Assembly (NCBI GenBank): GCA_963725335.1
Contig: CAVRYD010000011.1
Span: forward strand, 1,199,104 to 1,263,103
Length of the DNA stretch: 64,000 nucleotides
Direction: 5' to 3'
Source of the DNA: an uncultured Acidobacteriota bacterium
GTDB taxonomy: Bacteria; Acidobacteriota; Vicinamibacteria; Vicinamibacterales; 2-12-FULL-66-21
The translations under genes and the position numbers were made by a program. The notes beneath the pieces are model-generated. The model did not search any database, was not told the DNA's origin, and saw only the letters and a program-made list of their open reading frames with translations. Shown piece after piece: positions 42,063 through 64,000 of the stretch (the stretch's first letter is position 1; every line of letters begins with the position of its first letter).

Positions 42063-43240
42063 CGCACCTCCAACGTTGTCAGTCGGGCGCGCCTGCGCAC
42101 GGTCTGGACGCTCATGGTCGAGAACTCGCTGCTCCTGGCCGGCGGAACGATTGCCGGCATGGCGTGGGCGAACCTCCATCAGCCGTCCTACTCGCGGTTC
42201 GCCAATTCCCTTCACTTCCTCGTCAACGACGTCGGGATGGTCTTCTTCTTCGCGCTGGCGGTGAAGGAAATCATCGAAGCGACGCTGCCCGGCGGAGCGC
42301 TCGAATCGCCGCGGGAGGCCGCCGTGCCGATCCTCGCCGCCGCGGGAGGCATGATGGGCCCCGCTGGTCTCTACGTCCATCTCAGACCATGATTCTGCAC
42401 CGCCCCGAGCTGATGCCCGGCTGGGCGATTCCGTGCGCGACCGATATTGCCTTCTCGTATCTCGTGGCGCGGTTCATTTTTCCGCGCAATCATCCCGCGA
42501 TCCCTTTTCTGCTGCTCCTGGCGATTGCCGACGATGCGCTTGGTCTGATTCTGCTGGCGTTGTTCTATCCGGCCGCCCAGGTGTCGCTGCTGAAGTTCGC
42601 GGCCCTCATGGTGCCGGCGCTTGGCGTGACGGTCTGGCTGCGTCGGCGGCGCACGACCAACTTCTGGCCGTACCTCACGATCGGCGGCGGGCTCTCGTGG
42701 GCGGCGCTGTTCTTTGGCGGTGTGCACCCGGCGCTCGCGATGGTGCCGATCCTCCCATTCATGCCGCACGAGCAGCGCGACCTGGGCCTTTTCGATCCGC
42801 GCGAGCACGATCTGCCGGACACGATGAACCGATTCGAGCACGCGTGGAAGATCCCCGTCCAGTTCGTGCTGCTGTTCTTTGGCCTCGTGAACGCCGGCGT
42901 CCTGCTGTCGAGCGTCGGGCCGGCGTCGTGGACCGTCTTTCTCTCGCTGCTCTTTGGAAAGCCGATCGGAATCGTGGGCACGACGTTTCTCGCCGTGCGT
43001 TTCGGGCTGCGCGCGCCGGGCGGGCTGAGTTATCGGGATGCGACCGTCATGGCGGTTGCGGCGGGGATTGGCTTCACCGTGGCGTTGTTCTTTGCCACGT
43101 CCGCGTTCCCGCCGGGACCGCTGCTCGACGAAGCGAAGATGGGCGCGTTGATGAGCTTCATGGCGGCGCCGATCGCCATCGTCTTCGGCCGCCTCGTGGG
43201 TCTCAAGCCGAGCAAAGCAGAACCCCGTAGAACCTCGTAG
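42059..43240 (+). CDS. nhaA: Na+/H+ antiporter NhaA (frameshift near 42385)
   Basis: VNDVGMVFFF; GWAIPCATDIAF; LAIADD; GGVHP; GKPIGI; AGIGFTVALF. Confidence 0.9.
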   Translation: MTHLQRCQSGAPAHGLDAHGRELAAPGRRNDCRHGVGEPPSAVLLAVRQFPSLPRQRRRDGLLLRAGGEGNHRSDAARRSARIAAGGRRADPRRRGRHDGPRWSLRPSQTMILHRPELMPGWAIPCATDIAFSYLVARFIFPRNHPAIPFLLLLAIADDALGLILLALFYPAAQVSLLKFAALMVPALGVTVWLRRRRTTNFWPYLTIGGGLSWAALFFGGVHPALAMVPILPFMPHEQRDLGLFDPREHDLPDTMNRFEHAWKIPVQFVLLFFGLVNAGVLLSSVGPASWTVFLSLLFGKPIGIVGTTFLAVRFGLRAPGGLSYRDATVMAVAAGIGFTVALFFATSAFPPGPLLDEAKMGALMSFMAAPIAIVFGRLVGLKPSKAEPRRTS

Positions 43241-43288
43241 AACCTCGTAGAACCTCGTAGAACCCCGTAGAACCCCGTAGAACCCCTA
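43219..43288. repeat. Tandem 10-mer AGAACCYCGT (six copies plus a partial)
   Basis: Spans from the nhaA 3' end to the stop of the convergent SRPBCC gene. Confidence 0.9.
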
Positions 43289-43771
43289 GGAGGCATTCTC
43301 GACGTACTGCTTCAGCGCGACGAGCGACTTCAACCAGCCGACCTCGATCACGCCGTAATACCGCCGCCACCGGGGGGAATCCTCGAAGCCAGTTTGTCTG
43401 ACGCGCAGCCTGCAGGCGGGCCCATCCATCGCGCATTGCACCTGCAGCGACATCGGGCCGACGGGGCCGCTGTCGGGTGGCAGCCACCACGCGTCCGCAA
43501 TCACGAGCTCACGCCCCGGCTGGTATTCCATCACGCTGCCGTAGAACACGCCGCCGAGACGTCCGAGGAGGTCATCGACTTCGGCGGTCGGTGCCCACTC
43601 GACCGCGTAGATCCCAAGTGGACGTGCGGTCGTCACCGATCGCACGGTCTGCCACCAGACGCTCAGCGCGGCGGGATCGAAGAACGCGGCGAGGACGCGC
43701 GTCGGTGCGGCAGTGATCAGAATGGAATGATCGAAGGAAAGATCGTCGGTCTCGCGCGGCACCTCGGCCAT
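43286..43771 (-). CDS. SRPBCC/AHSA1-like domain protein
   Basis: ILITAAPTRVLAAFFDP..LSVWW; GWLKSLVALKQYVE. Confidence 0.8.
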   Translation of the reverse strand: MAEVPRETDDLSFDHSILITAAPTRVLAAFFDPAALSVWWQTVRSVTTARPLGIYAVEWAPTAEVDDLLGRLGGVFYGSVMEYQPGRELVIADAWWLPPDSGPVGPMSLQVQCAMDGPACRLRVRQTGFEDSPRWRRYYGVIEVGWLKSLVALKQYVENAS

Positions 43772-48895: not shown

Positions 48896-49369
48896 GTGGC
48901 CGACTGCGTGATCTTCATCGGACTCCCGGCGTCCGGAAAAACCACGTTTTACCAGCGTCGGTTCGCTGGAACGCACGATCACATCAGCAAAGATCTTTGG
49001 CCGAGCACGTCCAACAAAGACCGGCGGCAAACCGATGCCATCCGCCGCGCACTCGCGGAGCATCGCTCTATCGTCGTCGACAATACGAATCCGGCGGCGG
49101 TGGATCGCGCGCCGATCATTACGCTCGCCCGCGAATACGGGGCGCGCGTGATCGGGTATTACTTCACGGCAACCACCCGGGAGGCCGTGGGCCGGAACCG
49201 CGGCCGCGAAGGGAAGGCGCGCGTGCCCGACGTGGCGATCTTCACGAGGGCGAAGCAAATGGTCCGGCCAACAAGCGGCGAGGGATTCGACGAGCTGTAC
49301 ACGGTCTCGATCGATCCCGGTGGGGACTTCAATGTCCAGCCGATGATCGTTCCGCTTCTGGAGTCTTGA
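48896..49369 (+). CDS. AAA_33 family P-loop kinase (PNK-like)
   Basis: IGLPASGKTTFY; SIVVDNTN; RNRGR; EGFDELY. Confidence 0.85.
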   Translation: MADCVIFIGLPASGKTTFYQRRFAGTHDHISKDLWPSTSNKDRRQTDAIRRALAEHRSIVVDNTNPAAVDRAPIITLAREYGARVIGYYFTATTREAVGRNRGREGKARVPDVAIFTRAKQMVRPTSGEGFDELYTVSIDPGGDFNVQPMIVPLLES

Positions 49370-51343
49370 GCGGCGAGCGCGACGAGGCCACGACGGCAAA
49401 CGCCGTGTCGCTGGATTCGTCGGCGACCCGGCGGAGCAGCGATGCGCTTCGCATGAACGCGTCGACGACGGCCGGATCGAAGTGCGTGCCCTCGCCGTTG
49501 GCGATCAACTCGACCGCCCGGTCGTGCGGCAGTGGGCCTCGATAGCATCGAGGTGTGGTCAGCGCATCGTACACATCCACGATTGCCATCACCCGTCCGG
49601 GGATCGGGATCTGCTCTCCCTTGAGGCCGCATGGATAGCCGCCCCCGTCCCATCGTTCGTGATGCGTGTAGACGATGTCCTTCGCCATCGCCAGGATCTC
49701 GTCGTCGCCCGCCCCGGCTCGCTTCTGAGCGGTCGTGATGACTTTGAGGCCGTAGACGGGGTGTTTCTTCATCTCTCTGAATTCTTCGTCCGTGAGCGCC
49801 CCGGGTTTGTTCAACAGCTGATCCGGTACGCCCACCTTGCCGATGTCGTGGAGCGGCGCGAGCGTCGAGAGTAAATCGATCTGCGGCGGCGTCAGGGTAC
49901 TCGCGGAAGCGCGGGTGCTCACGAAGCTGCAGGGCCAGCAGCCGGCTGTACTGCTGCGTCCGGCGTGAGTGATTGCCGGTTTCGGCATCCCGGATTTCCG
50001 TCAGCGAGAGCAGCGACTGCACCATCATGCGGTGCGCGGCATCGCTTTCAACCGCCGCGGACTGCGCGCGGTGACGCTCGTGTGCGAGCTTCGCAATGGT
50101 GGTGGCGAGCAGCGACGCGGTGAGCCCGATCGCCGGAAGGACCGGCGAGAAGTACATGTCCCTTTGCCGACATTATCCATCCCGAGCCGCGCCACGCGGC
50201 CACGAGCAGGATCAGTCCCGCGGCGCTGCCCCATGACAGACCGAACCTCACCACCAGCATCGTTGCCGCAATCGCGAGTCCGAGAACCGCGGTCATCTCG
50301 ACGAGCACAGCGTTGGGGGGACGCGAGATGAAATCCCGGCGCAGCAGATTGTCGATGACCGTGGCCTGAACTTCGACGCCGGGGAAGACGGTGTCGAACG
50401 GAGTCGACACGCCGTCCCGGGTACCAAGGGCTGTTGCGCCGACGACAACGATGGCGTCCTTCAACGCCGCCGCTGGCGCGCGTCCCTCCAGCACGTCGAC
50501 CGCAGTGACGTAGGGAAGCGCTCGGCTGCTGCCGCGGTACCGCAACAGCAGATTGCTGCGGCCGTCGAGCGGAACCTCGCCCGAATCCAGGACCAGAGAC
50601 GCCGCATTGACGTTCTGGACGCGCAGGACAACCGGCCGGGCCGGTGTCGCCGCCATGACTGCTGCCAGGCCGAGTCCCGGATACATCCGACCCTCGTGCT
50701 CAATCAGCAGCGGCAGACGACGGAGCATGCCGTCTGCGTCGGGTACGGCGTTCAGAAACCCGGATCCGTCAGCAGCCCTCGCGAGGATCGGCAGCGTGCA
50801 AACCGCGCCGGTCGCGTGGAATGCTGGCACATCGATGCTGGTTCCTCCACTCTGAAGGACTGGCAACGTCAACGGATGAAGCACGCAGTCGCTGGTTGGG
50901 GCCTTCGCGCCGTTGAAGGTGAAGGCATATCCAACAACGACATGTCCCTGCCGCAGCGCATCAGCAAGGGCAGCATCGGTGCCGGCCGGCCGCTGAGGAT
51001 CGGCGCGCTCGAACCGGTCGGTTTCCGGAAAGACGACATCGAGCGCGATTACGCGGGCCCCGAGGTCGCGCAGCCCGGTGACCAGCTGAGCGATCACGTC
51101 GCGGCTCCACGGCCACTGTCCGACGGCCGCGAGGCTGCGTTCGTCGATGTCTACGATCGCCACGCGGCTGGCATCGGTCGGCTTCGGGAGCGATCGCAGC
51201 AGGCCGTCGTAGACGCGGCGGTCGAGCGGGGTGAAGAGGGAGGGGCTGAAAACCGCGAGAGCAACGGTCAGCAGAGCAGGAGCCACCCCGCACAGCAGGA
51301 CGAGCCGTCGGCCGGCGACGCGGTCAGTCCGTTCTTTCTCCAC
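49329..51343 (-). CDS. CHASE2 sensor plus HD-GYP cyclic-dinucleotide phosphodiesterase (frameshifted)
   Basis: IVDIDERSL..GQWPWSR; PGVEVQA; transmembrane helices; ETGNHSRR; LHDIGK; HHERWDGGGYP; DVYDAL. Confidence 0.9.
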
Positions 51344-51443
51344 GGCAAGGTCTTCTCGATGACCCGGGATACAGATGGGTCACGAGATTCCCTACCATAC
51401 TCCGGTTGGGGTGGGGAAATGAAACGGGCGGCGTTGGTGCCGA

Positions 51444-54308
51444 TCAGAAGTCGAAGCGAACGCCCCACTGAAACTGGCGGGCGTCGCGCGCGACGGACCG
51501 CTGCAGGAACGCCGCCGAATTAATGTTTGACCCCGCATTGGGCGGGCTACCGAGCGGTGGCCTCAGGTTCGAATGATTGGCTAGATTGAACCCCTCGACG
51601 AGCAGTTCAAGGCGGCTGCGGCCGATGGCGAGACTCTTCGACACACGCATGTCGAGCGAGCTGAACAGGTCGAGCTTCAAGAGCGACGCGTCGATCGGCT
51701 GCAGGTGGAGATTCGTACGAAAGACGCCCGCAAGGCGTTGATCGCGGCGAGCGGACTCGGCGACGCGGCTCCGTCCGACCGTAATCGGAATATCTCGCGG
51801 GCAGATCGCCGAGGGAAATCGTGTCTCTATCGAGATCCGACTCCGGCCTGAACTTTCATCGGAGCGTCCGCTCGCGACCTTGACGATGCCGCCGATCTGG
51901 ACGTCCCAGGGCAACACGAATGTACCGGCGACCGCCAGAGCATGGCGCTGATCGGAAGGGTTGAATCCGCGCTCGTGGGGTGTCCGCTGCGTGCCTCTCG
52001 TCGACAGAAAGAAGTCGACACCGTCGAGGTAGCTGCGCGAGAGCGCGTAGGCAACGTTCACGGAGTGACGGCGGCCCACGCGCATTCGAAACTGAGACTC
52101 GAGGGCGTCGTACCAGCTGTCACTGTAGTTCTCGAGTGCGAGGACCTGGCCGAACTGAGCCACCGGTCGTGGCTGAGCATTCACGCCGGTGATCGGGCCG
52201 CTTGGCGGGAGATTCCGATCGGTGAAACCGGTCTGGTGCGTGGCCGCCGAGTGCACGTAGTTAACGTCCAGCGCAGTTGTTTGTGACATCTGCCAGGCGA
52301 TGCCCGCTGTCGTGTTGACCGCGTACGGCTGTACGAAATCATCAGGAATCAGCGTCCCTATCTGACGCGGTCCCTCGCAGGTATAAGAACCGTCCGGTTT
52401 CTGCGCACCGAGCACGGCGGCGATATCCGGAAAGAATCTCAGGCAGGCCGAATTCGTGATGCGAATCGTCCGGCTCGCGATCTGGTTCATGGCCCGCAGC
52501 TGAAACCACGGCCGATTCCGCGTCACGTACATGCCCCATCCACCCTTGACGATCAGCTGTCCATTGCCGCGGGCATCCCAGGTGAGCCCCAGTCTGGGCT
52601 GGAGATTATTCGTGTCGGTTCCCCGATCGTCGCCGATGAAATGTTCGAGGCCAGCCATGGTGGGATCGCGAAAAAGGCTGGCATAGTAGTCGTTCAAGCG
52701 CAGATTCAGGTCCACGTCGTAACGAACGCCGGCATTCAGGAACCATCGTGATCCGAGTCGCCAGTCGTCCTGTACGAACATGCCCAGCTCGCGCGAACGA
52801 TAGTTGACGATGCTCGCACTCTGGATCGTGAACACCGTCGGCCAGGTGTTGGAGGCGGAAGCCGCCGGGTCGAACGGCAGATCGGTCTGGAAGTTGAACA
52901 CGCCATTCTCGAGAGCGTGCGAGTCGTTGTCGTGTGTCGTGTAGGCGAATTCTCCCCCGAGTTTGATTTCATGGTGCGCCGTGTGGAGGTAGATCTCGTC
53001 GGTCGCCACGACTCTCGTGCGCGACAGGATTTGCGAGTCGTTATTGGTCTGTCCGATCGTGCCGGACGGACGGATGATGCCGACGTCCGAAGTTCTTGGC
53101 GTCGTGCCGAGACTGTGATTCAAGAGGTATAGCCGGAATCCATTGGCGACCTGCTCCCGCGGCGTCCAGACGTGCTCGACGGTCGTGCGCCAGGAGCGAT
53201 TGCGAGTGTCGACCTGACTCGAGTCCGACGTCGGGGCGAGAAGTGACCGCAGCGACTGCTGGAAATCAAATCCGTAGCGCAGCGACAGCGTCTGCGCTGC
53301 GCCGAGCCGATGGTCCAGTCGTGCGGCCACGGTGCGGTTGTCGGACGCAGCCGGAAAGACACCATTCTCGGTTGCCGCAAGAGGGTTGCTCGCCGGCAGC
53401 GCGATGAGCCGGACATTGTCGACGTTATCGCCCTCGAATGCTGCGAAGAAGTGGCTGCGATCGCGTACCAGCGGTCCGCCGATTGTGGCGCCGACCCGTT
53501 GTTCGTCAAAGGGCAGAATCTGTGAAGCCATGGGATTGCGCGCGTTCAGCGTGCTGTCGCGACCGAAATAAAACCCGCGGCCGCTGAGCTGATTCGTCCC
53601 GGAACGAGTGACAACCGTGACCACCGCATTCAGTGCATGTCCGTATTGGGCATCGAACTGGCTTCGATAGACCTTGAATTCCTGCACCGAGTCCTGTCCG
53701 ATGTTCATCGTCGGACTGCCCCACTGCGCGTCGTCGATATCGCCGCCGTCGACGATCGTTGTATAACCGCTGCGCTGATCGGCGGGACCGCCAAATCGCG
53801 TAATGGCAAATCGCGTGACGGTCCCGTTGACCGGTCCCGATCCGGGCAGAAGCTGCGCGAGCGTCAGGAAATTGCGGTCGAGGATCGGCAGCGCATCCAC
53901 CTGCACCTTCGTGATGACCGACGATGGCTGGGATCGTGTGACTTCGACGAGAGGGCTCTCCGCTGTGACCGACACCCGATCCGTGACGCTCGCCAGGGAG
54001 AGCGTGAAGTTCACGGTCGCGTCCGCATCGACAAGGAGTGTGACGCGGCGCGTCATCGTGGTGAACCCGCCATGCGCCGCAGTGATCTCGTACTCGCCCG
54101 GGATCAAGCCGATTGCGCGATAGGTCCCTGTGGCGCCCGTCTTCAACGGCTGTTTGCGCCCGTTCTGCACGTGCGTGATCGTCACGGCGGCACCCTCGAG
54201 CGAGGCGCCGGATGAATCATTGACGACACCGGTCATGCTGCTTCCGAGAGCCTGACCGTTGCCTACCGCGGGAACCGCCAGGAGGGTGACGATCAGAAGC
54301 GTTTTCAT
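51444..54308 (-). CDS. TonB-dependent receptor (Oar-like)
   Basis: Signal peptide; GVVNDSSG; LPILDRNF; FVQDDWR..LNAGVRYD; C-terminal RQFQWGVRFDF. Confidence 0.9.
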   Translation of the reverse strand: MKTLLIVTLLAVPAVGNGQALGSSMTGVVNDSSGASLEGAAVTITHVQNGRKQPLKTGATGTYRAIGLIPGEYEITAAHGGFTTMTRRVTLLVDADATVNFTLSLASVTDRVSVTAESPLVEVTRSQPSSVITKVQVDALPILDRNFLTLAQLLPGSGPVNGTVTRFAITRFGGPADQRSGYTTIVDGGDIDDAQWGSPTMNIGQDSVQEFKVYRSQFDAQYGHALNAVVTVVTRSGTNQLSGRGFYFGRDSTLNARNPMASQILPFDEQRVGATIGGPLVRDRSHFFAAFEGDNVDNVRLIALPASNPLAATENGVFPAASDNRTVAARLDHRLGAAQTLSLRYGFDFQQSLRSLLAPTSDSSQVDTRNRSWRTTVEHVWTPREQVANGFRLYLLNHSLGTTPRTSDVGIIRPSGTIGQTNNDSQILSRTRVVATDEIYLHTAHHEIKLGGEFAYTTHDNDSHALENGVFNFQTDLPFDPAASASNTWPTVFTIQSASIVNYRSRELGMFVQDDWRLGSRWFLNAGVRYDVDLNLRLNDYYASLFRDPTMAGLEHFIGDDRGTDTNNLQPRLGLTWDARGNGQLIVKGGWGMYVTRNRPWFQLRAMNQIASRTIRITNSACLRFFPDIAAVLGAQKPDGSYTCEGPRQIGTLIPDDFVQPYAVNTTAGIAWQMSQTTALDVNYVHSAATHQTGFTDRNLPPSGPITGVNAQPRPVAQFGQVLALENYSDSWYDALESQFRMRVGRRHSVNVAYALSRSYLDGVDFFLSTRGTQRTPHERGFNPSDQRHALAVAGTFVLPWDVQIGGIVKVASGRSDESSGRSRISIETRFPSAICPRDIPITVGRSRVAESARRDQRLAGVFRTNLHLQPIDASLLKLDLFSSLDMRVSKSLAIGRSRLELLVEGFNLANHSNLRPPLGSPPNAGSNINSAAFLQRSVARDARQFQWGVRFDF

Positions 54309-54406
54309 GCCTTGACCTCGCCAGTCTTGAACGCGCGGGAGGCGCCAGAATAGATCCATTATTCCTTCCCGAACAGGGTGAAGGCGGACGCCCACTGGTC
54401 GGCGCT

Positions 54407-54463
54407 AATATAGGGGCACTTCCGAAGCAGTTCTTCGGAAACTCGTGGGAATTTCATGGGTAT
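54407..54463 (-). promoter_or_regulatory. 11-bp phased direct repeats plus -10-like TATATT upstream of the TBDR
   Basis: On the minus strand: CCCATGAA, CCCACGAG and CCGAAGAA at an 11-bp period, 18 nt, then TATATT. Also an inverted repeat TTCCGAAG-N5-CTTCGGAA (54420-54440). Confidence 0.6.
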
Positions 54464-54475
54464 TGGCTAACCGCC

Positions 54476-55138
54476 GTGAAACTTCGTTTAGGCGAGCTGA
54501 CGTTCGACGGGGAGTCCCGTCAACTCCTGCGCGGCGTCGAGGAGGTCCATCTCTCTCCAAAGGCCTTTGAGCTCCTGAAGATTTTGATCGAGCAGCGTCC
54601 GCGGGCGCTCTCGAAGCAGGAGCTGCACGAGCGGCTTTGGCCGGATACGTTCGTTTCGGAGGTCAACCTGGCGAGCCTGATTGCCGAAATCCGTGCGGCC
54701 CTTGGCGACACGGCGAGCGAACCTACCTTCATCCGAACCGCCCGCCGATTCGGCTATGCGTTCAGCGGCGACGGCGTGGAGGCTGCCGATACCCGCGCGA
54801 TCGATGCCGCGACGAGCTTCTGCTGGCTTATCAGGGATGGACGCCGCGTTCCGCTGCGGCTCGGTGAAAACATCCTCGGACGGGATCTGGACGACGGGGT
54901 CAGGATCGATTCACCGACCGTGTCGCGACGTCATGCCCGCATCGTCATCTCAGATGGAGAAGCGGTCCTCGAGGATCTTCAAAGCAAGAACGGAACCTTC
55001 GTCGGAGAGCAACCCGTGTCCGGAACGATTCGCTTGAAGGATGGTGACGAGATTCGCACAGGTTCTGTAATCGTCCGGTTTCGGATGACCTCGCGCAAGG
55101 GGCCCACGGCCACGTGGCATGGTCCGGGTGACGAGTAG
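54476..55138 (+). CDS. OmpR/PhoB-type winged-helix plus FHA domain regulator
   Basis: LSPKAFELL..W..TFVSEVNL..IRAALGD..FIRTARRFGYAF; FHA motifs LGRD, VSRRHA, SKNGT. Confidence 0.9.
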   Translation: MKLRLGELTFDGESRQLLRGVEEVHLSPKAFELLKILIEQRPRALSKQELHERLWPDTFVSEVNLASLIAEIRAALGDTASEPTFIRTARRFGYAFSGDGVEAADTRAIDAATSFCWLIRDGRRVPLRLGENILGRDLDDGVRIDSPTVSRRHARIVISDGEAVLEDLQSKNGTFVGEQPVSGTIRLKDGDEIRTGSVIVRFRMTSRKGPTATWHGPGDE

Positions 55139-55144
55139 ACGCCG

Positions 55145-57850
55145 CTAACGTTTCAGCAGCGCCGTCCAGTTCTGCACGACGGTGATTCTTGACGAGACCC
55201 GCTCGCCGGCCGCGACGCTCATCAGGAATCGCTGACCATCTGGTGATACGTCGTATCCCAGGTAGCGCGCGCGATTGCGAAACCCGGTCTCTCTGTTGAT
55301 CGGAAACAGTCGGACGGGGTCGCCGGCCTTGAGTGTCGGCTTGAGTTCGATCGGCACCATCATGACTGCTTTCCCGTCGGCGGTCACGTAGAACAGTTCC
55401 CGCCCATCGGCTCGCCATCGCGGCGCCAGGCCTCCTTCTGTCGACACCCTGATTTTCCTGCCGGGTCCTTGAAACGGAGCGATGGACACCTCGGATCGGC
55501 CCGATTCATCAGATACATACGCCATCCAGTGCGAGTCGGGAGAGAACCTCGCGCCCCACTCGTTAAAGCGTGTGTTCAGGATCGGTCGGCCCTTGGGCTC
55601 CCCGTCGAGCGACAAGATCCACAAATCGTTCCCGGTCTCTCGGCTGCCGTCGGTGTACACCAGCCACTGACCGTCCCGCGACCAATCATCGGGTGTTTGA
55701 AATCCCACCTGAACCCATAGCACGTCTTCTGGCCCCATACCGTCGGACCTCTTCCTGAAGAAGTCCGATGAGGCATCTTTCCCGACTCCACGATCCGAGC
55801 CGAAGATGATGCGTTGCCCGTCGCGCGACCATACGGGCATCGTCTCGTCGTTCAGGTCGGTCGTGAAGGGCGTGGCGAGCCGGCGACCAAAGTGATACAT
55901 CCAGATGTCTGACGTTCCTTGGTGCGGATCGACGACTTCGACGGCAACCTGTCCGCCATCGGGGGAGATTCGCAGGTTGCCGAATCGCTGCGGAGTCCAA
56001 ATCGACCCAAGAGGCGATCCGTCGCGGGCAAGCCACACGAGTTCGAGCGATCCTGCGCCGCCGTGATAGGCCAACACTCCCGCGTCTGACAGGGAGAACG
56101 CGGCGCTGCCGGTCGAGCGATAGTAATCGACGTCCTCCGCGATCCGCACCGGCTCCCCGGTGAGCCGCAGGGCGTTCTCATCGAACTGTTGGGCCAGGAG
56201 CGCCCCTTCGTGCACATACAGCACCCATCCCGACCGGTCGTACACCATTCGCGAGTTCAGGCGTTTGATCTCTTTTCGTTCGTCTGAATCGAGGGAGGCT
56301 GCATACACAATCGGAGTGATTCTGCGGCCATCCGGTCCAAGTGCCGTTGCCGTATAGAGGAACTGTCGGCCGTTGGGCAGCATGCTTGGCCAGTAGTGAT
56401 TGAGCTCGCGCTCAGAGGCATTCACGTGTGTTGACGCTACAGGCGTGCCGCCCTCCCCCGACACCCGGTAGATGCCTTTGCGAAATTCGGTGAAGAGAAT
56501 CGTGCCGTCAGCTGCCCATACGGGGAGCCCAGAATTGACGGCGGCGCAAATCGCCCGAGGCGGCCCGCCTGAGGTTTCGACTTTCTTCAGCAGCCCTTCG
56601 CCTGGCGAGAAGAATCCAATAAAGCGGCTGTCCGGGGACCAGAACGGCGACGTTGCGCCGTCGGTGCCGTCGAGCAAGCGAGCCGTCACCGAATCGAACG
56701 GCTGTACCCAGAGCTGATCGCGGCCTCCACTTGTCGCAACGAACGCCAGCTGCCGGCCGTCAGGCGACACCGCTACACGTGTCTCGGCGCGAGCGCCACC
56801 GAGTGTCGTCCCCGCAGGGAGTTGCACGACAAACCTAGTGATCGCGGCTGGCGGTTTTGGTCGGAGCAGAAGACTTGCTCCCAGGCCCACGAGGCTCATC
56901 ACTGCGAGCGCGGTTGCGCTCCAGCCGAGGACTGCTCGTCGCGGACGATTGCGCGCGGCGCGTTCCTGCCGCGGATCGTTTCCGTCAGCGAGCCAGTCAA
57001 TCGCCGCCTTCAGATCGCGTGCCGTCTGCCAGCGCTCGTCGGGATTCTTGGCCAGACACCGCTCGGCGAGGTAATCAAGCGACTTCGGCAGCCCGTCGTG
57101 CGGCTGTGCCTGGCGAGCCGCGGAGATCGCGGGAGGGTGCGCGGTCAGGATGGAGGCGATGATGCTTGCCTGGCTATCGCCGTCGAATGCTTTCCGGCCC
57201 GTCGCCATCTCGTAGAGCAGCGTCCCGAAAGCGAAGATGTCAGTGCGCGCGTCGGCTTCCTTTCCCTCGAGTTGTTCCGGCGCCATGTATTGGACGGTGC
57301 CAATGACCGTGCCCTCAGCCGTCGCTTTGCGGTGATCGAACGATGCGGTCGACAGCAATCCCGTGGACGCGAGCAGGGGAGCCTTGGCAAGCCCGAAGTC
57401 GAGCAGCTTTGCGCCTGAACGCGTCAGCATCACGTTGCTCGGTTTCAGGTCGCGATGCACGATGTGCTCGCGGTGGGCGCAATCGAGCGCATCCGCGATT
57501 TGCCCGCCGAAGCGCAACACTTCACCCGACTCGAGCGCGCCCTTCGTCAATCGATCGTCGAGCGTCTCGCCATCCACGTACTCCATCACGATGAAGATGC
57601 GATCGTCATGCTCGCCGACGTCGTACAGCGTGCAAATGTGCGGGTGGTTGAGTGAGGAGATGGCGCGCGCTTCGATTTCCAGACGGTGACGGCGGTCGGG
57701 ACGGTCTGCGGAGTCGGGGGGCAGCAGCTTGATGGCGACGACGCGATTGAGGCGCGTGTCGCGCGCTTTGTAGACCTGGCCCATCCCTCCTGCGCCAATC
57801 AGGGAGAGGATTTCGTACGGGCCGAGTCGGGCGCCGGCTGTCAGCGTCAT
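55145..57850 (-). CDS. Hanks-type Ser/Thr kinase with transmembrane helix and TolB/PD40 beta-propeller
   Basis: IGAGGMGQVY; VAIK; HRDLKPSN; DFGLAK; YMAPEQ; transmembrane helix; repeated SPDG/WSxDG motifs. Confidence 0.93.
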   Translation of the reverse strand: MTLTAGARLGPYEILSLIGAGGMGQVYKARDTRLNRVVAIKLLPPDSADRPDRRHRLEIEARAISSLNHPHICTLYDVGEHDDRIFIVMEYVDGETLDDRLTKGALESGEVLRFGGQIADALDCAHREHIVHRDLKPSNVMLTRSGAKLLDFGLAKAPLLASTGLLSTASFDHRKATAEGTVIGTVQYMAPEQLEGKEADARTDIFAFGTLLYEMATGRKAFDGDSQASIIASILTAHPPAISAARQAQPHDGLPKSLDYLAERCLAKNPDERWQTARDLKAAIDWLADGNDPRQERAARNRPRRAVLGWSATALAVMSLVGLGASLLLRPKPPAAITRFVVQLPAGTTLGGARAETRVAVSPDGRQLAFVATSGGRDQLWVQPFDSVTARLLDGTDGATSPFWSPDSRFIGFFSPGEGLLKKVETSGGPPRAICAAVNSGLPVWAADGTILFTEFRKGIYRVSGEGGTPVASTHVNASERELNHYWPSMLPNGRQFLYTATALGPDGRRITPIVYAASLDSDERKEIKRLNSRMVYDRSGWVLYVHEGALLAQQFDENALRLTGEPVRIAEDVDYYRSTGSAAFSLSDAGVLAYHGGAGSLELVWLARDGSPLGSIWTPQRFGNLRISPDGGQVAVEVVDPHQGTSDIWMYHFGRRLATPFTTDLNDETMPVWSRDGQRIIFGSDRGVGKDASSDFFRKRSDGMGPEDVLWVQVGFQTPDDWSRDGQWLVYTDGSRETGNDLWILSLDGEPKGRPILNTRFNEWGARFSPDSHWMAYVSDESGRSEVSIAPFQGPGRKIRVSTEGGLAPRWRADGRELFYVTADGKAVMMVPIELKPTLKAGDPVRLFPINRETGFRNRARYLGYDVSPDGQRFLMSVAAGERVSSRITVVQNWTALLKR

Positions 57851-57866
57851 GTCTTTCGTCGTGAAG

Positions 57867-57931
57867 CCTACGGAAAACCCGGCGAACGCCCACGGCTCGC
57901 CAAAGACTCGGTCGCGCAGAGCCCTCATATT
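57867..57931 (+). promoter_or_regulatory. 11-bp phased repeats plus -10-like CATATT upstream of the carboxylesterase
   Basis: CCTACGGA 57867, degenerate unit 57878, CCCACGGC 57889, CCAAAGAC 57900, 18 nt, then CATATT. Confidence 0.5.
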
Positions 57932-57962
57932 ACGCCCACCAAAGCTGAATGAGGAGGGCGAG

Positions 57963-59606
57963 ATGAGGCCATTTGTGAAGATGTTTGCGCTGGTGATCGC
58001 GTGCGCAGTCGTGGGTCATCTGACAACGCGCGCCGCTCACACCCAGGCGGCGTCATGTCTGGTTACGACCGGCCAGGGAGACGTGCAGGGGCTGACGAGC
58101 GGCGGATCCTGCGCCTTTCTGGGTATTCCGTATGCCGCTCCGCCGGTGGCAGGTCTCAGGTGGAAACGACCGCAGGCGGCGGCCGCCTGGGCGCCTGCGG
58201 TGCTGAATGCGACGATCCCGCCGGCGACCTGCGCGCAGTTGAACAATGCGACCGGTGTGCCGCAAGGGTCGGAAGACTGTCTCAGGTTGACTGTCTGGAC
58301 GCCGAACCCGTTGCCGTCCAACGCGCCCGTGATCGTGTGGTTCCATGGGGGCTCGTTCGTGAATGCGTCAGCGAACTTTGCTCCGCAGAACGGCATGGCG
58401 CTCGCGGCCTCCACAGGTACGATCGTCGTCGCCCCCAACTATCGCCTCGGTCCATTTGGATACCTGGGACACGCAGCGCTTGCGACGGAGGACTCCGCGG
58501 CTGGCAACTACGGTCTGCTCGATCAACGCGCGGCGCTCATGTGGGTCCGCGATCAGATTGCCGCATTCGGCGGGGATTCCGGCAACGTGACGATTGCCGG
58601 TCAGTCCGCCGGAGGGCACAGCGTTGGTCTTCATCTCGTGTCACCGGGAAGCGCCGGACTGTTTCATCGCGCCATCATGCAGAGCGGATTCGCGTCCGTC
58701 CGCTGGCGCACGGCGGACGATGCGCGGACCCAGGGAGATGAGTTAGCGGCGGCGCTCGGTTGCACGAATGCCGATCCGGCGGCGCTCGTCGCGTGCCTGC
58801 GCTCGAAGAGTCAGAACGCCGTGCTTCTGGCTCGGCCGCCTGCGCTGGCCGAGCAATTCACCGAGACCGGACGATCGCAGTGGACGCCGATCGTCGACGG
58901 ACTCGAGATTCCCGATCAGCCGCGCGCGCTCTACGAGCAGGGCACGTTCAGCCAAGTGCCCGTCATCTTGGGAGCAAATCGTGACGAGGGCTGGACGTTC
59001 ACGACGCGGAGCTTTGCGTCAACGATGACCGAAGAGGATTACGAGCGCGCGATATACACGGAGTTCGACGGCGATGCGCCGGCGATTCTGGCCGAGTACC
59101 CTGCGGCTGCGTTTGCGACGCCGAGGGATGCGCTAGTGCAGCTCGTCGGCGATGTGGAGTATGTGTGCGAGGCGCGGCGCGTCGCTCGTCTCATCGAGGC
59201 GACCAAAACGCCCGTCTATCTCTACTCGTTCGAGTACGAAGTCGATCCGGTCGTTCCCGATCGAGTCGCGCACGGCATGGAGGTGAACTTCGTGTTCGGC
59301 AACAGTTTCGGTCCGCCGCTGTTTCCAGCCTACACGCTGGGTCCAGCGGACTTATCGCTTTCGCACGCGATGAGCGCGTACTGGACTCGCTTTGCGAACA
59401 CCGGCTCACCGAACATCGACGATGACAGCGTCGTCGAGTGGCCGGCGTTCAAGGACCCAAACGGGTTGGGCAGAGGCGCGAACAAGTATCTGATCTTCGA
59501 TGGGCAGATTCGTGAGGCCAAGCGGCTGCACGAGGAGCAGTGCGATTTCTGGGAGCCGTACTTCTTCAGGTCGGTGACAGGGTCGGTGCCGGCAGCTGTT
59601 CGTTAA
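57963..59606 (+). CDS. Type-B carboxylesterase, exported
   Basis: FLGIPYAAPP; SEDCL; WFHGGSF; NYRLG; GQSAGG; signal peptide; GGAGG RBS. Confidence 0.92.
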   Translation: MRPFVKMFALVIACAVVGHLTTRAAHTQAASCLVTTGQGDVQGLTSGGSCAFLGIPYAAPPVAGLRWKRPQAAAAWAPAVLNATIPPATCAQLNNATGVPQGSEDCLRLTVWTPNPLPSNAPVIVWFHGGSFVNASANFAPQNGMALAASTGTIVVAPNYRLGPFGYLGHAALATEDSAAGNYGLLDQRAALMWVRDQIAAFGGDSGNVTIAGQSAGGHSVGLHLVSPGSAGLFHRAIMQSGFASVRWRTADDARTQGDELAAALGCTNADPAALVACLRSKSQNAVLLARPPALAEQFTETGRSQWTPIVDGLEIPDQPRALYEQGTFSQVPVILGANRDEGWTFTTRSFASTMTEEDYERAIYTEFDGDAPAILAEYPAAAFATPRDALVQLVGDVEYVCEARRVARLIEATKTPVYLYSFEYEVDPVVPDRVAHGMEVNFVFGNSFGPPLFPAYTLGPADLSLSHAMSAYWTRFANTGSPNIDDDSVVEWPAFKDPNGLGRGANKYLIFDGQIREAKRLHEEQCDFWEPYFFRSVTGSVPAAVR

Positions 59607-59830
59607 TCCGGCCTGCGAGCTCGACCGTTGTGGCTCAGCATCTGGTCTTTCGGAGAGAACGCCACTGTGTCTCGGCAACTCCGCATGCACGCATCCAACG
59701 CCGCGATCTCCTGAGCGCGAATACGCGCACCCGAGGTCACACATTCGGCAAGGAATGTCTCTTTGTCGGTTGTTCCCTGTCTGAGGTCCACCTGGGCCGG
59801 CGCAGTTCGATCGACCCTTGGAGGCGAGCC

Positions 59831-60531
59831 ATGAATAGACCGCTTCGTTTCCTTGTTGCCGCAGCCATTCTGGGAACGGGCGTTCCGGGTGGCGTCAGCG
59901 GACCCTGTCACCATCACGTCCGGTTTCATTTCCATACCGGCCAACTTTTCTAGTCCAATCCAAGTGGAGGGAACGGGACTGGGTCCTGCCCTTTTCGTTG
60001 ATGGCATTCATCCCATCTGATAGTGCCATCGGGTGTCGGGGATGCCATCCATGTTTACCGACCGCGACGACCATCTCGCTCGGAATCGGCAGCTTCCTGG
60101 AGTTCGGCACGGTCACGTATGGCAATGACCATTACACCGTGGGTGGCATGGCCGACACGTCCGGCAGCGTCCTTCTCCGAATCGCTGGATCTGCGCTGCT
60201 TCCTCCGGCCCCCTCAACAATAAACGAGCTGGCCACCGTCACGGGACTTTTTGAAGTGGTTCCCAACAGCCAGTTCAGTCCGCCCATCAGCGGAGGACCA
60301 TTCGGGCCCGGCAACGACTTGCGAGGGTCCGGCACGGCGACCGTGTCGTTGTTCGCGGAAGAACCGACGGCTGGCTTGCTGGTTTGGAGTTTACGGTCCG
60401 CCGACTACCAATTCGCCAACCAGGCGCCGATCCCGGAACCTGCGTCGTTCGTGCTGCTTGCGTCAGGGTTGGCGGGACTGGCGATGCAGCGCCGCAGGAG
60501 GCGGCTAGCTGACGCACATCGGACAGCCTAG
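59831..60531 (+). CDS. PEP-CTERM sorting domain protein, copy 1 (frameshifted 5' part)
   Basis: Signal peptide; ADPVTITSG; C-terminal IPEPASFVLLASGLAGLAMQRRRRR. Confidence 0.85.
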
Positions 60532-60607
60532 GAGCGGTAGTCACCTCCGTGAGAGTTCCCGTTCGTGGTAGAGAGCAGAGCAGTTCCTGGCCGATGGCCT
60601 TAAGGTT

Positions 60608-60982
60608 TCAGTCGGTTCCCCAGGGGTTGTCGATCACGAAGCGCCACGAGCCGTCTGCTTGACGACGCAGAACATCCCCGTTGCGGCCAGTCAGCGTCAC
60701 GGGTTTGCCATCTGATCCGGTTCCGGTGAATGACCAGACGCCAGCGACCAGGGCTAATCCACCTGCCTCGAGGACGCGTGTCACTTTGAGGTCGAGGGTG
60801 CCCTTCATCGCAATGAAGGCTGCCAGTGATTCACGAACACCCGCTAAGCCGTGAGCAAGGCTGCCCGGCTGAGGCGCAAACGCGGCCTCTGGCTCGTAGA
60901 GGGTCATGAGCGCATCGAGATTGCCCGAGTTGATTCCGTCAACGATCGATTTGAGGAGTTGCTCAGGCGTTTCTCTGGACAT
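60608..60982 (-). CDS. NTF2/SnoaL-like (YybH/DUF4440) protein
   Basis: INSGNLDALMTLYEPEA; DVLRRQADGSWRFVIDNPWG. Confidence 0.88.
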   Translation of the reverse strand: MSRETPEQLLKSIVDGINSGNLDALMTLYEPEAAFAPQPGSLAHGLAGVRESLAAFIAMKGTLDLKVTRVLEAGGLALVAGVWSFTGTGSDGKPVTLTGRNGDVLRRQADGSWRFVIDNPWGTD

Positions 60983-61335
60983 TACATCCTTCTCTCTCTG
61001 CGCTTGCGCGCGAATGTTTCAGACTAATCCTGCACCGAACCCGTCCTGGCGCGCTGGTTCGCTAGCAAGTTGATAGCTTGCCCGGTCCGCATCTTTCAGC
61101 TCGGTTGGCTCGCGGTTATGCTCGATGGACCGGCTGTAACCATACTCCCTTTGGGGTTCACAGATGAGCCCGTGTTCGTTGGTACTTCGCGTGCACGCCA
61201 ACCGACGCCGTCATCGCCTCGGCGCGAATACACGCAGCCGAGGTCCCACATTCGGCAAGGAAAGTCTCTTTGTCGGTTGTTACCCTATCTAATCCTCTTG
61301 GGCCAGGGCAGTTCGATCGCGTTTGGAGGGGAGCC

Positions 61336-62045
61336 ATGAATCGACCGCTTCGTTTTCTGGTTGCCGCCGCGACCATTCTAGGAGCGAGCGTTCCACGGGT
61401 GGCGTTGGCGGACCCTGTGACCATCACGTCCGGTTTCATTTTCCTACCGGCCAGTACGGTCTTCAGTCCAATCCAATTGGAGGGAACGGACGGGGTCCTG
61501 CCCTTTTCGTTCACCGGAGCCATCTCCCCCGATTCGAACATAGCGGTGCGGTTCTGCACTCCATGCTCACAGACCGCGACCAGCATCTCGGTCGAGATCA
61601 ACACGACCGGCATGGACCTGCCTGGCATCGTGCTCTACGGAGATGACAATTACGGCGTTGGCGGTCTCGCGGACACGGTCGGCAGCGTCGCTCTCCATCT
61701 CGATGGATCTGCGCTGCTTCCTCCCGCCCCGTCAATAACGAACCAGCTGGCCACCGTCACGGCACCTTTTGAAGTCGTTCCCACCAGCCGTTTCAGCCCG
61801 CCCATCAGCGGAGGACCATTCGGGCCCGGCAATACCCTGCGCGGGTCCGGCACGGCGACCGTGTCATTGTTCGCGGAAGAGCCGAGGACTGGCTTGCTGG
61901 TCTGGAGTCTACAGTCAGCCGATACCACTTCGCCGACCAGGCGCCGATCCCGGAACCGGCGTCGTTCGTGCTGCTGGTGTCAGGGTTGGCGGGACTGGCG
62001 ATGCAGCGCCGCAGGAGGCGGCAGGCAGCTGACGCGCTGCGGTGA
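61336..62045 (+). CDS. PEP-CTERM sorting domain protein, copy 2 (frameshift just before the PEP motif)
   Basis: Paralogue of copy 1 (shares FSPPISGGPFGPGN.LRGSGTATVSLFAEEP); IPEPASFVLLVSGLAGLAMQRRRR in the shifted frame. Confidence 0.85.
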
Positions 62046-62214
62046 GGCTAGTCGGAGTGCGGGAGTCCCGACGATTCAAGCGCCGGCCGAGCCGAGTGGC
62101 CGATTGCAGCCGCGTGTTCCGACTTCTATTCCACCGAGTTGCACAAGACTACGCGCGCCACAATTTGTCATCTTGTCATCGTCTCAGCGGAACGGCAACA
62201 AACGCTAGGCCCGG

Positions 62215-62637: not shown

Positions 62638-64000
62638 ATGAAGAAGATCGTCGGGAGTCAAGCTGTGCCGAGGCGCTACCGGATCGTGGGCCTGCTCGTC
62701 GCGGTCGCGGTCGTAGCGGCCGTTGGGGGCGCTACGAGCCGTACCGCCCCGGCGGTACTACCGGCTCTACCGAACACCGTTCAGCAGTGGAACAAGATCG
62801 CTGAGGATACGGTCGTCGGGTCGGGAGCCTTCCAGGGCGAAGGCGAGGTCTACATGAGTTACACGGCGACAGCTGTCTACGACGCAGTCGTTGCCATCGA
62901 GGGAGGTTACGAGCCGTACGGTCCTGGAGTCAGCGCCACTGCGGGTGCCTCCGTCGACTGCGCTGTGGTCGAGGCCGCGTACCGCACGCTGCTCCACTAC
63001 TTCCAGTCCAATGCGGCCTTGGTTACGAACCTCAACGGTTACTACTCCGACGCACTCTCGAACCTGAACGGATGCACAGCCGATGGCGGAGAGGGAACGA
63101 GTGTTGGATCGGCTGCCGCGAACAGCATCATCGCCCTTCGTACGGGCGATGGGCGCATGACCCCGATTGGTACGACGTCGCCGTTCGAGACGAAGAGCCC
63201 AGGCCCAGGAGTGTGGCGTCTCACTCCGCCATTCGCCGCCCCACAGACGCCGTGGCTAGGGTCGGTGCAACCGTTTCTGCTGAAGAGCCCTGGTCAGTTT
63301 CAAACGGAGCCGCCGCCTCCACTTACGAGCCAGCAATGGGTTCAGGGATTCAACGAGGTTAAGGCGTACGGCGAGGCAGGGAATAACACGCCTCGAACCA
63401 CGGAGCAGACTGCGATCGCGCGTTTCTGGACAGCGAACGTGATCCGACAGTTCAACATCGCCGCCCGCGATCTCGCGACCGGTCACTCGCTCAACCTGCT
63501 TGAGACGGCGCGGCTGTTCGCCATGGTCAACACGGTGAGCGCGGACGCTCTGATGTCGGTGCTCAACTCCAAGTACCGATTCCTCTTCTGGCGGCCTGTG
63601 ACCGCGATCAACCCTACGGCGGTGACGGCGGACAGCTTCGGGCCGGTACCTGGATTCGATGACGGCAATCCAAGGACCATCGAAGATCCCGTTTGGCAGC
63701 CACTCGTCGCGACGCCCAACCATCCCGAGTACCCGGGGGCCCACGGCACGAACACGTCCGCTATGGCCGAGGTCTTCAGCGAATTCCTGGGCACCGACAA
63801 CATCGATCTCGACATCCGCGGCTTCAGCGCCGGCGGCGCAGCCGGGAACCTCGACGCCGTTCGTCACTTCGACACCACGGATCAACTCAGAACCGAGATC
63901 GTCGATGCGCGGCTCTGGGGCGGCATCCACTATCGCTTCTCAACCGCGGCGGGCGTGCAGCTCGGCCGCATGGTCGCGCACTACGGTCTCAATCACGCAT
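62638..64000 (+). CDS. Vanadium-dependent haloperoxidase/PAP2 family protein, exported; runs off the window end
   Basis: Missing from the ORF track. GGAGG RBS; signal peptide; VQQWN; AVYDAV; KYRFLFWRP; HPEYPGAH; ARLWGGIHYR. Confidence 0.88.
   Translation, partial: MKKIVGSQAVPRRYRIVGLLVAVAVVAAVGGATSRTAPAVLPALPNTVQQWNKIAEDTVVGSGAFQGEGEVYMSYTATAVYDAVVAIEGGYEPYGPGVSATAGASVDCAVVEAAYRTLLHYFQSNAALVTNLNGYYSDALSNLNGCTADGGEGTSVGSAAANSIIALRTGDGRMTPIGTTSPFETKSPGPGVWRLTPPFAAPQTPWLGSVQPFLLKSPGQFQTEPPPPLTSQQWVQGFNEVKAYGEAGNNTPRTTEQTAIARFWTANVIRQFNIAARDLATGHSLNLLETARLFAMVNTVSADALMSVLNSKYRFLFWRPVTAINPTAVTADSFGPVPGFDDGNPRTIEDPVWQPLVATPNHPEYPGAHGTNTSAMAEVFSEFLGTDNIDLDIRGFSAGGAAGNLDAVRHFDTTDQLRTEIVDARLWGGIHYRFSTAAGVQLGRMVAHYGLNHA

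Follow-up and report, generated by a model that had tools for sequence, protein, structure and literature searches.

In Mycobacterium tuberculosis, the EmbR/PknH system governs transcription through a Ser/Thr kinase: PknH phosphorylates the SARP regulator EmbR on Thr in an FHA-dependent manner, and promoter binding increases (PMC4601284). The Bdellovibrio protein DgcB is activated by its own phosphothreonine (pThr) tail binding to its own FHA domain, mainly between molecules (PMC6733907). In the diderm Xanthomonas citri, the transmembrane Hanks-type kinase PknS controls transcription via a cognate factor, EcfK; that output is an extracytoplasmic function (ECF) sigma factor phosphorylated to bind RNA polymerase, with no FHA domain, winged helix or repeat box (PMC13147305). 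Here we describe a locus in a 64,000-nucleotide stretch of DNA (hereafter the window; contig CAVRYD010000011.1, positions 1,199,104 to 1,263,103 of the forward strand) from an uncultured Acidobacteriota bacterium, in which a regulator made of a winged helix and an FHA domain lies next to a membrane Ser/Thr kinase. The pair is likely a threonine-phosphate counterpart of two-component signalling, predicted to switch through a conserved Thr tail of the regulator, and is a non-chance, apparently undescribed variant of FHA-coupled kinase-to-transcription signalling. A literature search on kinases, FHA domains and winged helices in Acidobacteria, with subscription journals mostly outside its reach, found no paper on this regulator family. 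With about 100 Hanks-type kinases in the genome and a large family of such regulators, what is at stake is the route from the kinases to transcription.

The genes and sites of the block are given in window positions:

51444..54308, minus strand: TonB-dependent-receptor-like outer-membrane barrel, cargo 1 (CarboxypepD_reg and OMP_b-brl_4)
54407..54464, minus strand: promoter box 1, three 11-bp direct repeats, AAGAAC at -35, 17 nt, TATATT
54476..55138, plus strand: winged-helix and FHA transcription regulator, 220 amino acids (Pfam; AlphaFold)
55106..55114, plus strand: T211-A-T213 regulator tail, candidate phospho-acceptor and FHA ligand (conservation; low AlphaFold confidence)
55145..57850, minus strand: Hanks-type Ser/Thr kinase with a single transmembrane segment and a predicted double beta-propeller, 901 amino acids
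57862..57931, plus strand: promoter box 2, four 11-bp repeats, AAGACT at -35, 17 nt, CATATT
57963..59606, plus strand: exported carboxylesterase, cargo 2 (COesterase, E 1e-119)

The regulator and kinase genes are convergent, with stop codons 6 bp apart (55139-55144), and each is divergent from an exported gene, the TonB-dependent receptor (TBDR) on one side and the carboxylesterase on the other, just as a first-pass annotation of the window had laid them out. Esterase, kinase, regulator and TBDR are kept as a block in three relatives at about 70-88% identity, with the esterase internally shortened in one of them, and short contigs obtained from four DNA runs of a single study cover both promoters in part, as well as the 6-bp gap. 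The TBDR-like protein has a signal peptide and a C-terminal Phe (78-81% identity to three orthologues), and the carboxylesterase has the motifs GQSAG, NRDEG and VAHG (76-79% identity to two full-length orthologues). No NCBIfam model scored over its cut-off for any of six proteins scanned.

EmbR/PknH is the closest known system, and EmbR is the regulator's best PDB sequence match (E 6e-12; PDB 2FEZ, 2FF4). The two regulators have in common an N-terminal OmpR-type winged helix and a C-terminal FHA domain (Trans_reg_C, E 5e-17, and FHA, E 8e-18, in the window protein), and control of transcription through a Ser/Thr kinase is predicted here as well. They differ in that the window regulator has no BTAD domain by Pfam, its AlphaFold model of two domains (mean predicted local distance difference test, pLDDT, 85.7) leaving only a low-confidence linker of about 15 residues between them. 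Because the BTAD test fails, we regard it as EmbR-like in its working and not as a SARP. It is also shorter (220 against 388 amino acids), comes from a diderm, and belongs to a family with hundreds of modular copies whose sensors and cargo are swapped. The phosphosite listed for EmbR, T209, lies in the BTAD domain (PMC4601284), whereas the candidate site here is a conserved C-terminal T-x-T tail. Pfam found no receiver domain in the regulator, and its NCBIfam response-regulator scores were far under the cut-off. The protein consists of winged helix and FHA domain only, is soluble and carries no fused transmembrane or periplasmic sensor. In the kinase, Pfam matched Pkinase (E 2e-51) and PD40 (E 1e-23), and the catalytic motifs GxGxxG, VAIK, HRDLKPSN, DFG and APE are intact.

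The neighbourhood of regulator and kinase recurs in other genomes, as the first reading of the locus had anticipated. Of 58 regulator loci flanked by 7 kb or more on both sides, 14 had a kinase domain within 300 bp, 44 within 3 kb, 49 within 5 kb and 54 within 7 kb, and all four regulator/kinase orientations occurred. Control loci with FHA-less CadC-like winged-helix genes, several with shorter flanks, had a kinase within 5 kb in only 1 of 19 cases and within 7 kb in 2; a 20th control locus in fact contained an FHA regulator, and there the kinase was at a distance of 399 bp. Within the window's own genome, 1 of 22 FHA-less winged-helix genes and 12% of random positions were near a kinase. At distant loci (hand-picked from a phylum survey, plus the one found among the controls and minus one duplicate), 13 of 19 regulators had a kinase within 5 kb. 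The expected partner, a kinase with a PD40 propeller, proved common and yet too narrow a description: the C-terminal parts of 46 partner kinases, scanned out of 71 nearest ones, comprised 27 with PD40, 9 with TPR, 2 with a STAND ATPase, 1 with dCache and 7 without a Pfam family, and cargo elsewhere is varied too.

Among the candidates scored, the family makes up at least 7535 clusters (90% identity). Named homologues and loci belong to the Vicinamibacteria and Thermoanaerobaculia of the Acidobacteriota, with two of 80 loci labelled Gemmatimonadota, and the Atlas clusters agree. Of 24 genomes of the genus, 18 had the regulator, as did 2 of 16 from elsewhere in the order and 27 of 301 sampled across the phylum; these tallies include two unpublished genomes, G022 and G062, which enter into no other result. 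Over-long regulators in the phylum survey were stop-to-stop frames, the real regulators being of normal length. In the window genome, which is 8.07 Mb in size and 64% complete, tblastn located 100 kinase loci, of which 42 continue into a propeller, and 28 winged-helix matches, of which four have an FHA domain and are intact regulators and two are truncated remnants. Both remnants (G000 C14:210820 and C11:471155) retain only the N-terminal half of the winged helix, and the first abuts a kinase gene.

Both exported genes lie behind a promoter box that is found across the family. We built the box model by expectation maximisation on 230-nt upstream regions (94 after de-replication, without the window and its orthologues). 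The resulting motif, AAAacC.ggaaAtTCCc.gGaa.TtcCC.A.GACT, was present in about 72% of sequences, and a -10-like [C/T/G]A[T]nnT followed 17-18 nt past it in 59 of 62 sites. In the 8-Mb genome, the held-out window promoters scored 34.2 bits (box 1, rank 2) and 28.2 bits (box 2, rank 7); ranks 1, 6 and 13 were training sites of three regulator paralogues, and nothing exceeded 18 bits on either strand of 2 Mb of second-order Markov DNA. Each box has three to four 11-bp repeats running into the -35 position, then 17 nt and a -10 element, and both are conserved in three orthologues, box 2 almost invariantly; the suggestion that the two cargo promoters share one architecture thus holds, and the de novo motif and held-out scores place the TBDR and the esterase alike behind it. 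A plain sigma-70 and terminator scan gave no excess over shuffles (3 vs 2.0 and 8 vs 8.4) and listed neither box promoter. As in OmpR/PhoB and FecIRA systems, sensor, regulator and predicted target genes are adjacent, direct repeats with an OmpR/PhoB-like 11-bp period sit at -35, and a TonB-type receptor is a candidate target; unlike in those systems, no histidine kinase, receiver, ECF sigma or anti-sigma is found among the block genes.

Across 99 loci (training set included), 63 had a box above 18 bits pointing away from the regulator, and 34 more boxes lay elsewhere. Because the box tracks the regulator and the fusions described below, the winged helix probably binds it. The box also abuts the regulator's own start codon, beginning 12 nt from it in the window and within 25 nt in 47 of the 63 proximal cases, which suggests that the regulator autoregulates. 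The 65 genes scanned of 96 behind boxes included TonB-type receptors, esterases, beta-helix, haloperoxidase-like and multicopper oxidase proteins, and many without a Pfam family. Our own signal-peptide rule picked out 49 of the 63 genes next to a proximal box, compared with 333 of 651 background frames; since this rule is crude, the view of the cargo as exported rests mainly on reading the N-termini and on Pfam. Two strong boxes (33 and 31 bits; G000 C11:193868, plus strand, and C7:742938, minus strand) precede lipoprotein-like genes, lack any winged-helix gene within 15 kb, and are candidates for control in trans. A weak box-like site at window position 27059 on the minus strand (16.8 bits) is within the chance range. 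A tandem AGAACCY decamer repeat occupies window positions 43239-43290, and its doubled unit has 156 matches in the genome; such repeats score as high as 19 bits in the box model, for which they were judged false positives.

A search for longer relatives of the regulator retrieved proteins of about 730 amino acids in which a winged helix is followed by a transmembrane segment and a PD40 propeller (P0132-P0144, L158, L159). Compared with a co-directional operon in genome G015, they show 79-90% identity to the regulator in the winged helix and, in the propeller, 61-78% to the kinase encoded by the next gene. Identities to this operon of 88-89% for the winged helix go together with 75% for the transmembrane-propeller part; in P0132, this 75% match to the G015 kinase spans 413 residues and starts where the kinase domain ends. 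At two fusion loci the divergent carboxylesterase is retained, and the box, at 35-37 bits, is almost the same as that of the G015 operon. In a midpoint-rooted winged-helix tree (63 sequences, 102 columns), six fusions nest in the FHA-regulator clade beside G015 (97/89), and this clade stands apart from 21 other winged helices of the window genome (99/95). From these sequences, the FHA and kinase domains were most likely lost in frame, once. Since the fusions link the sensor, the DNA-binding domain and the promoter, propeller and winged helix would act in one path. Their layout of winged helix, transmembrane segment and periplasmic sensor is that of ToxR/CadC, whose related N-terminal winged helices are both among the PDB matches of the regulator; the window regulator is soluble, and its clade is separate from the CadC-like proteins of its genome. 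Apparent kinase-regulator fusions (P0122, P0125, P0126) look like frameshifted gene calls and were set aside.

The phosphothreonine-binding residues of the FHA domain (G135, R136, S150, R151, H153, N172 and G173) are conserved at 99-100% in the homologue alignment. Among 70 homologues below 70% identity, T211 and T213 are each Thr in 89%, with Ser in 0% and 3%, and the linker before the tail is variable (positions at most 31% conserved, except 54% for the Ser preceding T211). This strictness agrees with the selectivity of FHA domains for phosphothreonine. Residues 209-220 have pLDDT below 50, so that the tail is predicted to be disordered, and the tail Thr lies 7-9 residues beyond the last FHA strand of the model. 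The pattern extends to distant relatives: an FHA-only profile served to anchor 147 out of 150 representatives of 50%-identity clusters, and among these TxT was present in the tail window of 110 (shuffle mean 19, maximum 31) and exactly eight residues past the FHA strand in 77, and the first tail position was Thr in 76% and Ser in 2%, with a small bias in that the search profile which gathered these representatives included the tail. The T-x-T tail, which the first-pass annotation had overlooked, is likely the regulator's switch.

Tail type also varies together with one residue of the FHA domain. In the FHA loop S-x-N-G-T, 135 of 145 representatives carry Lys or Arg, and T-x-[T/S] is absent from 9 of the 10 without this basic residue as against 12 of the 135 with it. 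The exceptions are one clade of seven and three separate branches, and the starred branches force only two changes; in 8 of the 9, a single Thr is followed at +3 by Ile, Val or Leu. Such covariation is expected if the tail is the FHA ligand and is doubly phosphorylated in the main group, so this coupling is in line, indirectly, with the tail serving as FHA ligand. A Lys in this loop may bind a second phosphate, as is reported for Nbs1. Diphosphorylated FHA ligands of the pSDpTD type exist (PMC4655838). One subgroup (L049, L051, L053, L111, L112, L129, L131 and L155) has a single-Thr tail (e.g. ETKRI) and mostly S-S/T-N-G-T in the loop; its regulators face a gene for a cytoplasmic FHA-domain protein (PF00498 in 3 of 5 scanned) and then a kinase, not exported cargo.

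Close structural matches of the FHA domain include DgcB and the actinobacterial GarA and OdhI, which likewise carry, on the FHA chain, a conserved Thr within a disordered tail. Their tails are N-terminal, longer and single-Thr with a hydrophobic +3 residue, whereas that of the window regulator is C-terminal and T-x-T; their outputs are enzymes or enzyme inhibition, and here the predicted output is DNA binding. In DgcB, the equivalent FHA-loop residue, T96, contacts the phosphate, the +3 residue is stressed, and about 18 residues separate the tail Thr from the FHA domain (PMC6733907).

The kinase has a single hydropathy peak at residues ~306-330, with RQERAARNRPRR (six basic residues) just before it. 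Because there is one transmembrane segment with basic residues on its N-side, the part beyond it would lie in the periplasm. AlphaFold models these 570 residues as almost all beta (pLDDT 88, predicted template modelling score 0.85), and Foldseek matches them to tandem-propeller proteins at a template modelling score of about 0.3. Two propellers are therefore predicted for the external part, not the one of the first-pass annotation. The Foldseek search returned generic double propellers and no clue to a ligand.

Taken together, we consider it somewhat more probable than the contrary that the parts work as follows. The propellers would bind a periplasmic cue; the kinase would autophosphorylate and then phosphorylate the T-x-T tail of the regulator; the phospho-tail of one regulator would bind the FHA domain of the next molecule; regulators joined head to tail in this way would cover the 11-bp repeats; and the last of them would contact RNA polymerase at the poor -35, activating the TBDR and esterase promoters. 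Binding in trans is preferred because the tail Thr is 7-9 residues from the FHA end, compared with about 18 in DgcB, and activation because the -35 is poor. Kinase/FHA signalling was also the earlier interpretation of the locus, and it is supported in part, by adjacency, by the intact catalytic and phosphothreonine-binding residues, by the box and by the fusions, apart from the phosphodiesterase that had been counted in the regulon (see below).

Several observations weigh against this scheme. Of 19 distant held-out regulators, only 7 have a box above 18 bits immediately before them, and weaker related boxes precede some FHA-less winged-helix genes; the box therefore marks the DNA-binding clade and not kinase control. 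TxT is missing from 37 of the 147 representatives and from the activation loop of the window kinase, and for cis versus trans binding there is a geometric argument rather than a model. Only 3 of 34 de-replicated pairs have the same closest neighbour for regulator and kinase (identity correlation 0.21), and partners are swapped between loci. Because this congruence is poor, regulator-kinase specificity may be loose. The 58 loci include close kin, so that the adjacency counts overstate independence; kinship inflates these counts and is not enough to close the gap to the controls. Clustering by chance alone, in a genome rich in kinases and without any functional link, which could draw on the 17% of random genome positions within 8 kb of a kinase, is largely refuted by the 49 of 58 loci against 1 of 19 matched controls, the 14 of 58 kinases within 300 bp and the fusions, and we hold it to be very improbable.

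The rivals that keep a functional link differ in how the regulator is switched and by which kinase. The FHA domain might dock on the autophosphorylated kinase, as EmbR does on PknH, and the phospho-tail might then fold onto its own FHA domain, in the manner of GarA and OdhI, releasing the regulator from the membrane or shutting it off. EmbR phosphorylation requires FHA docking on PknH (PMC4601284), GarA, OdhI and DgcB are among the closest FHA structures, and the activation loops of adjacent kinases are Thr-rich (TxT in 39 of 67, as against 31 of 77 kinases of the window genome). Yet 7-9 residues are a short span if the tail is to reach a pocket on the opposite end of its own FHA domain, and the FHA-less fusions, which retain the same promoter, fit signal-induced clustering of winged helices better, so we regard this switch as unlikely, although it belongs to the same pathway. 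It is considerably less plausible that the regulator is a repressor whose unphosphorylated form sits on the repeats and is removed by the kinase. The last repeat does overlap the -35 position, and most proximal boxes lie close to the regulator's own start codon; against this, the -35 is poor and a plain sigma-70 scan lists neither promoter. Winged helices of the OmpR/PhoB/ToxR type usually act as activators when they sit on direct repeats at -35. EmbR binding, moreover, increases upon phosphorylation (PMC4601284). The regulator may instead read many kinases, the adjacency reflecting mobile sensor-cargo cassettes and the window kinase being one of several inputs. About 100 kinases, 42 with propellers, for four intact regulators count against an exclusive pairing, as do the weak partner congruence, the two strong boxes far from any winged-helix gene and the in vitro phosphorylation of EmbR by PknA and PknB as well (PMC4601284). 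The block is nevertheless conserved in three relatives, the fusion couples the winged helix to the propeller of its own neighbour, and regulator tails are slightly closer to the cognate activation loop than to those of shuffled partners (p 0.02-0.05, a weak, post hoc result); we think this rival improbable.

Two further features lie to the left of the TBDR:

49329..51343, minus strand: gene for a phosphodiesterase with CHASE2, transmembrane and HD-GYP parts (Pfam CHASE2, HD_5; frames compared with a 673-amino-acid orthologue)
51392..51405, minus strand: conserved element CGGAGTATGGTAG, candidate separate promoter with a putative -10-like TATGGT, in the gap between TBDR stop and CHASE2 start

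The phosphodiesterase gene (CHASE2, E 2e-63; HD_5, E 2e-30) occupies three reading frames in the window, with frameshifts near 50160 and near 49835-49895, and is a single frame of 672-673 amino acids in two orthologues. The frameshifts are likely an assembly error, since several other genes of this assembly are frameshifted too. The gene adjoins the block in both orthologous relatives whose contigs extend so far. The annotation had placed this cyclic di-GMP phosphodiesterase in the regulon, which we reject. The box-model scan found no repeat box upstream of it; the 100-bp gap before it keeps a 13-nt TATGGT-containing element of its own in the window, L034 and L035, while the gaps are otherwise divergent; and CHASE2 occurs in 1 of 80 surveyed loci, namely an orthologue. 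The missing box and this restricted occurrence mean that the gene is probably a neighbour outside the regulon, at most reached by read-through.

Other genes border the locus. At 48896-49369, an AAA_33 kinase-like P-loop gene is convergent with the HD-GYP gene and is retained in one orthologous block (L035). At 59830-62050, a SnoaL-like gene is flanked by two similar PEP-CTERM-type genes with similar upstream DNA, both of which look frameshifted. At 62638-64000 lies a secreted vanadium-haloperoxidase-like gene (VCPO_2nd) with no box before the copy in the window; homologues of it adjoin the regulator at many other loci.

Our broadest reading is tentative and, we think, somewhat short of an even chance: that soil Acidobacteriota possess a modular third trans-envelope route, with a doubly phosphorylated Thr tail, an FHA domain tuned by one basic residue and polymerisation of the regulator, from which loss of FHA domain and kinase would have produced a ToxR/CadC-like receptor. 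The fusions show that evolution can pass directly between a phosphorelay and a one-component receptor. As kinase, substrate, two candidate phosphosites and operator lie within less than 4 kb, the question of how kinases reach transcription becomes testable in E. coli or in vitro. The box predicts targets in uncultured soil bacteria, among them outer-membrane receptors, esterases, haloperoxidase-like and beta-helix proteins. If the proposed pathway is true, it would provide the transcriptional output that is missing for some of the roughly 100 kinases in each genome.

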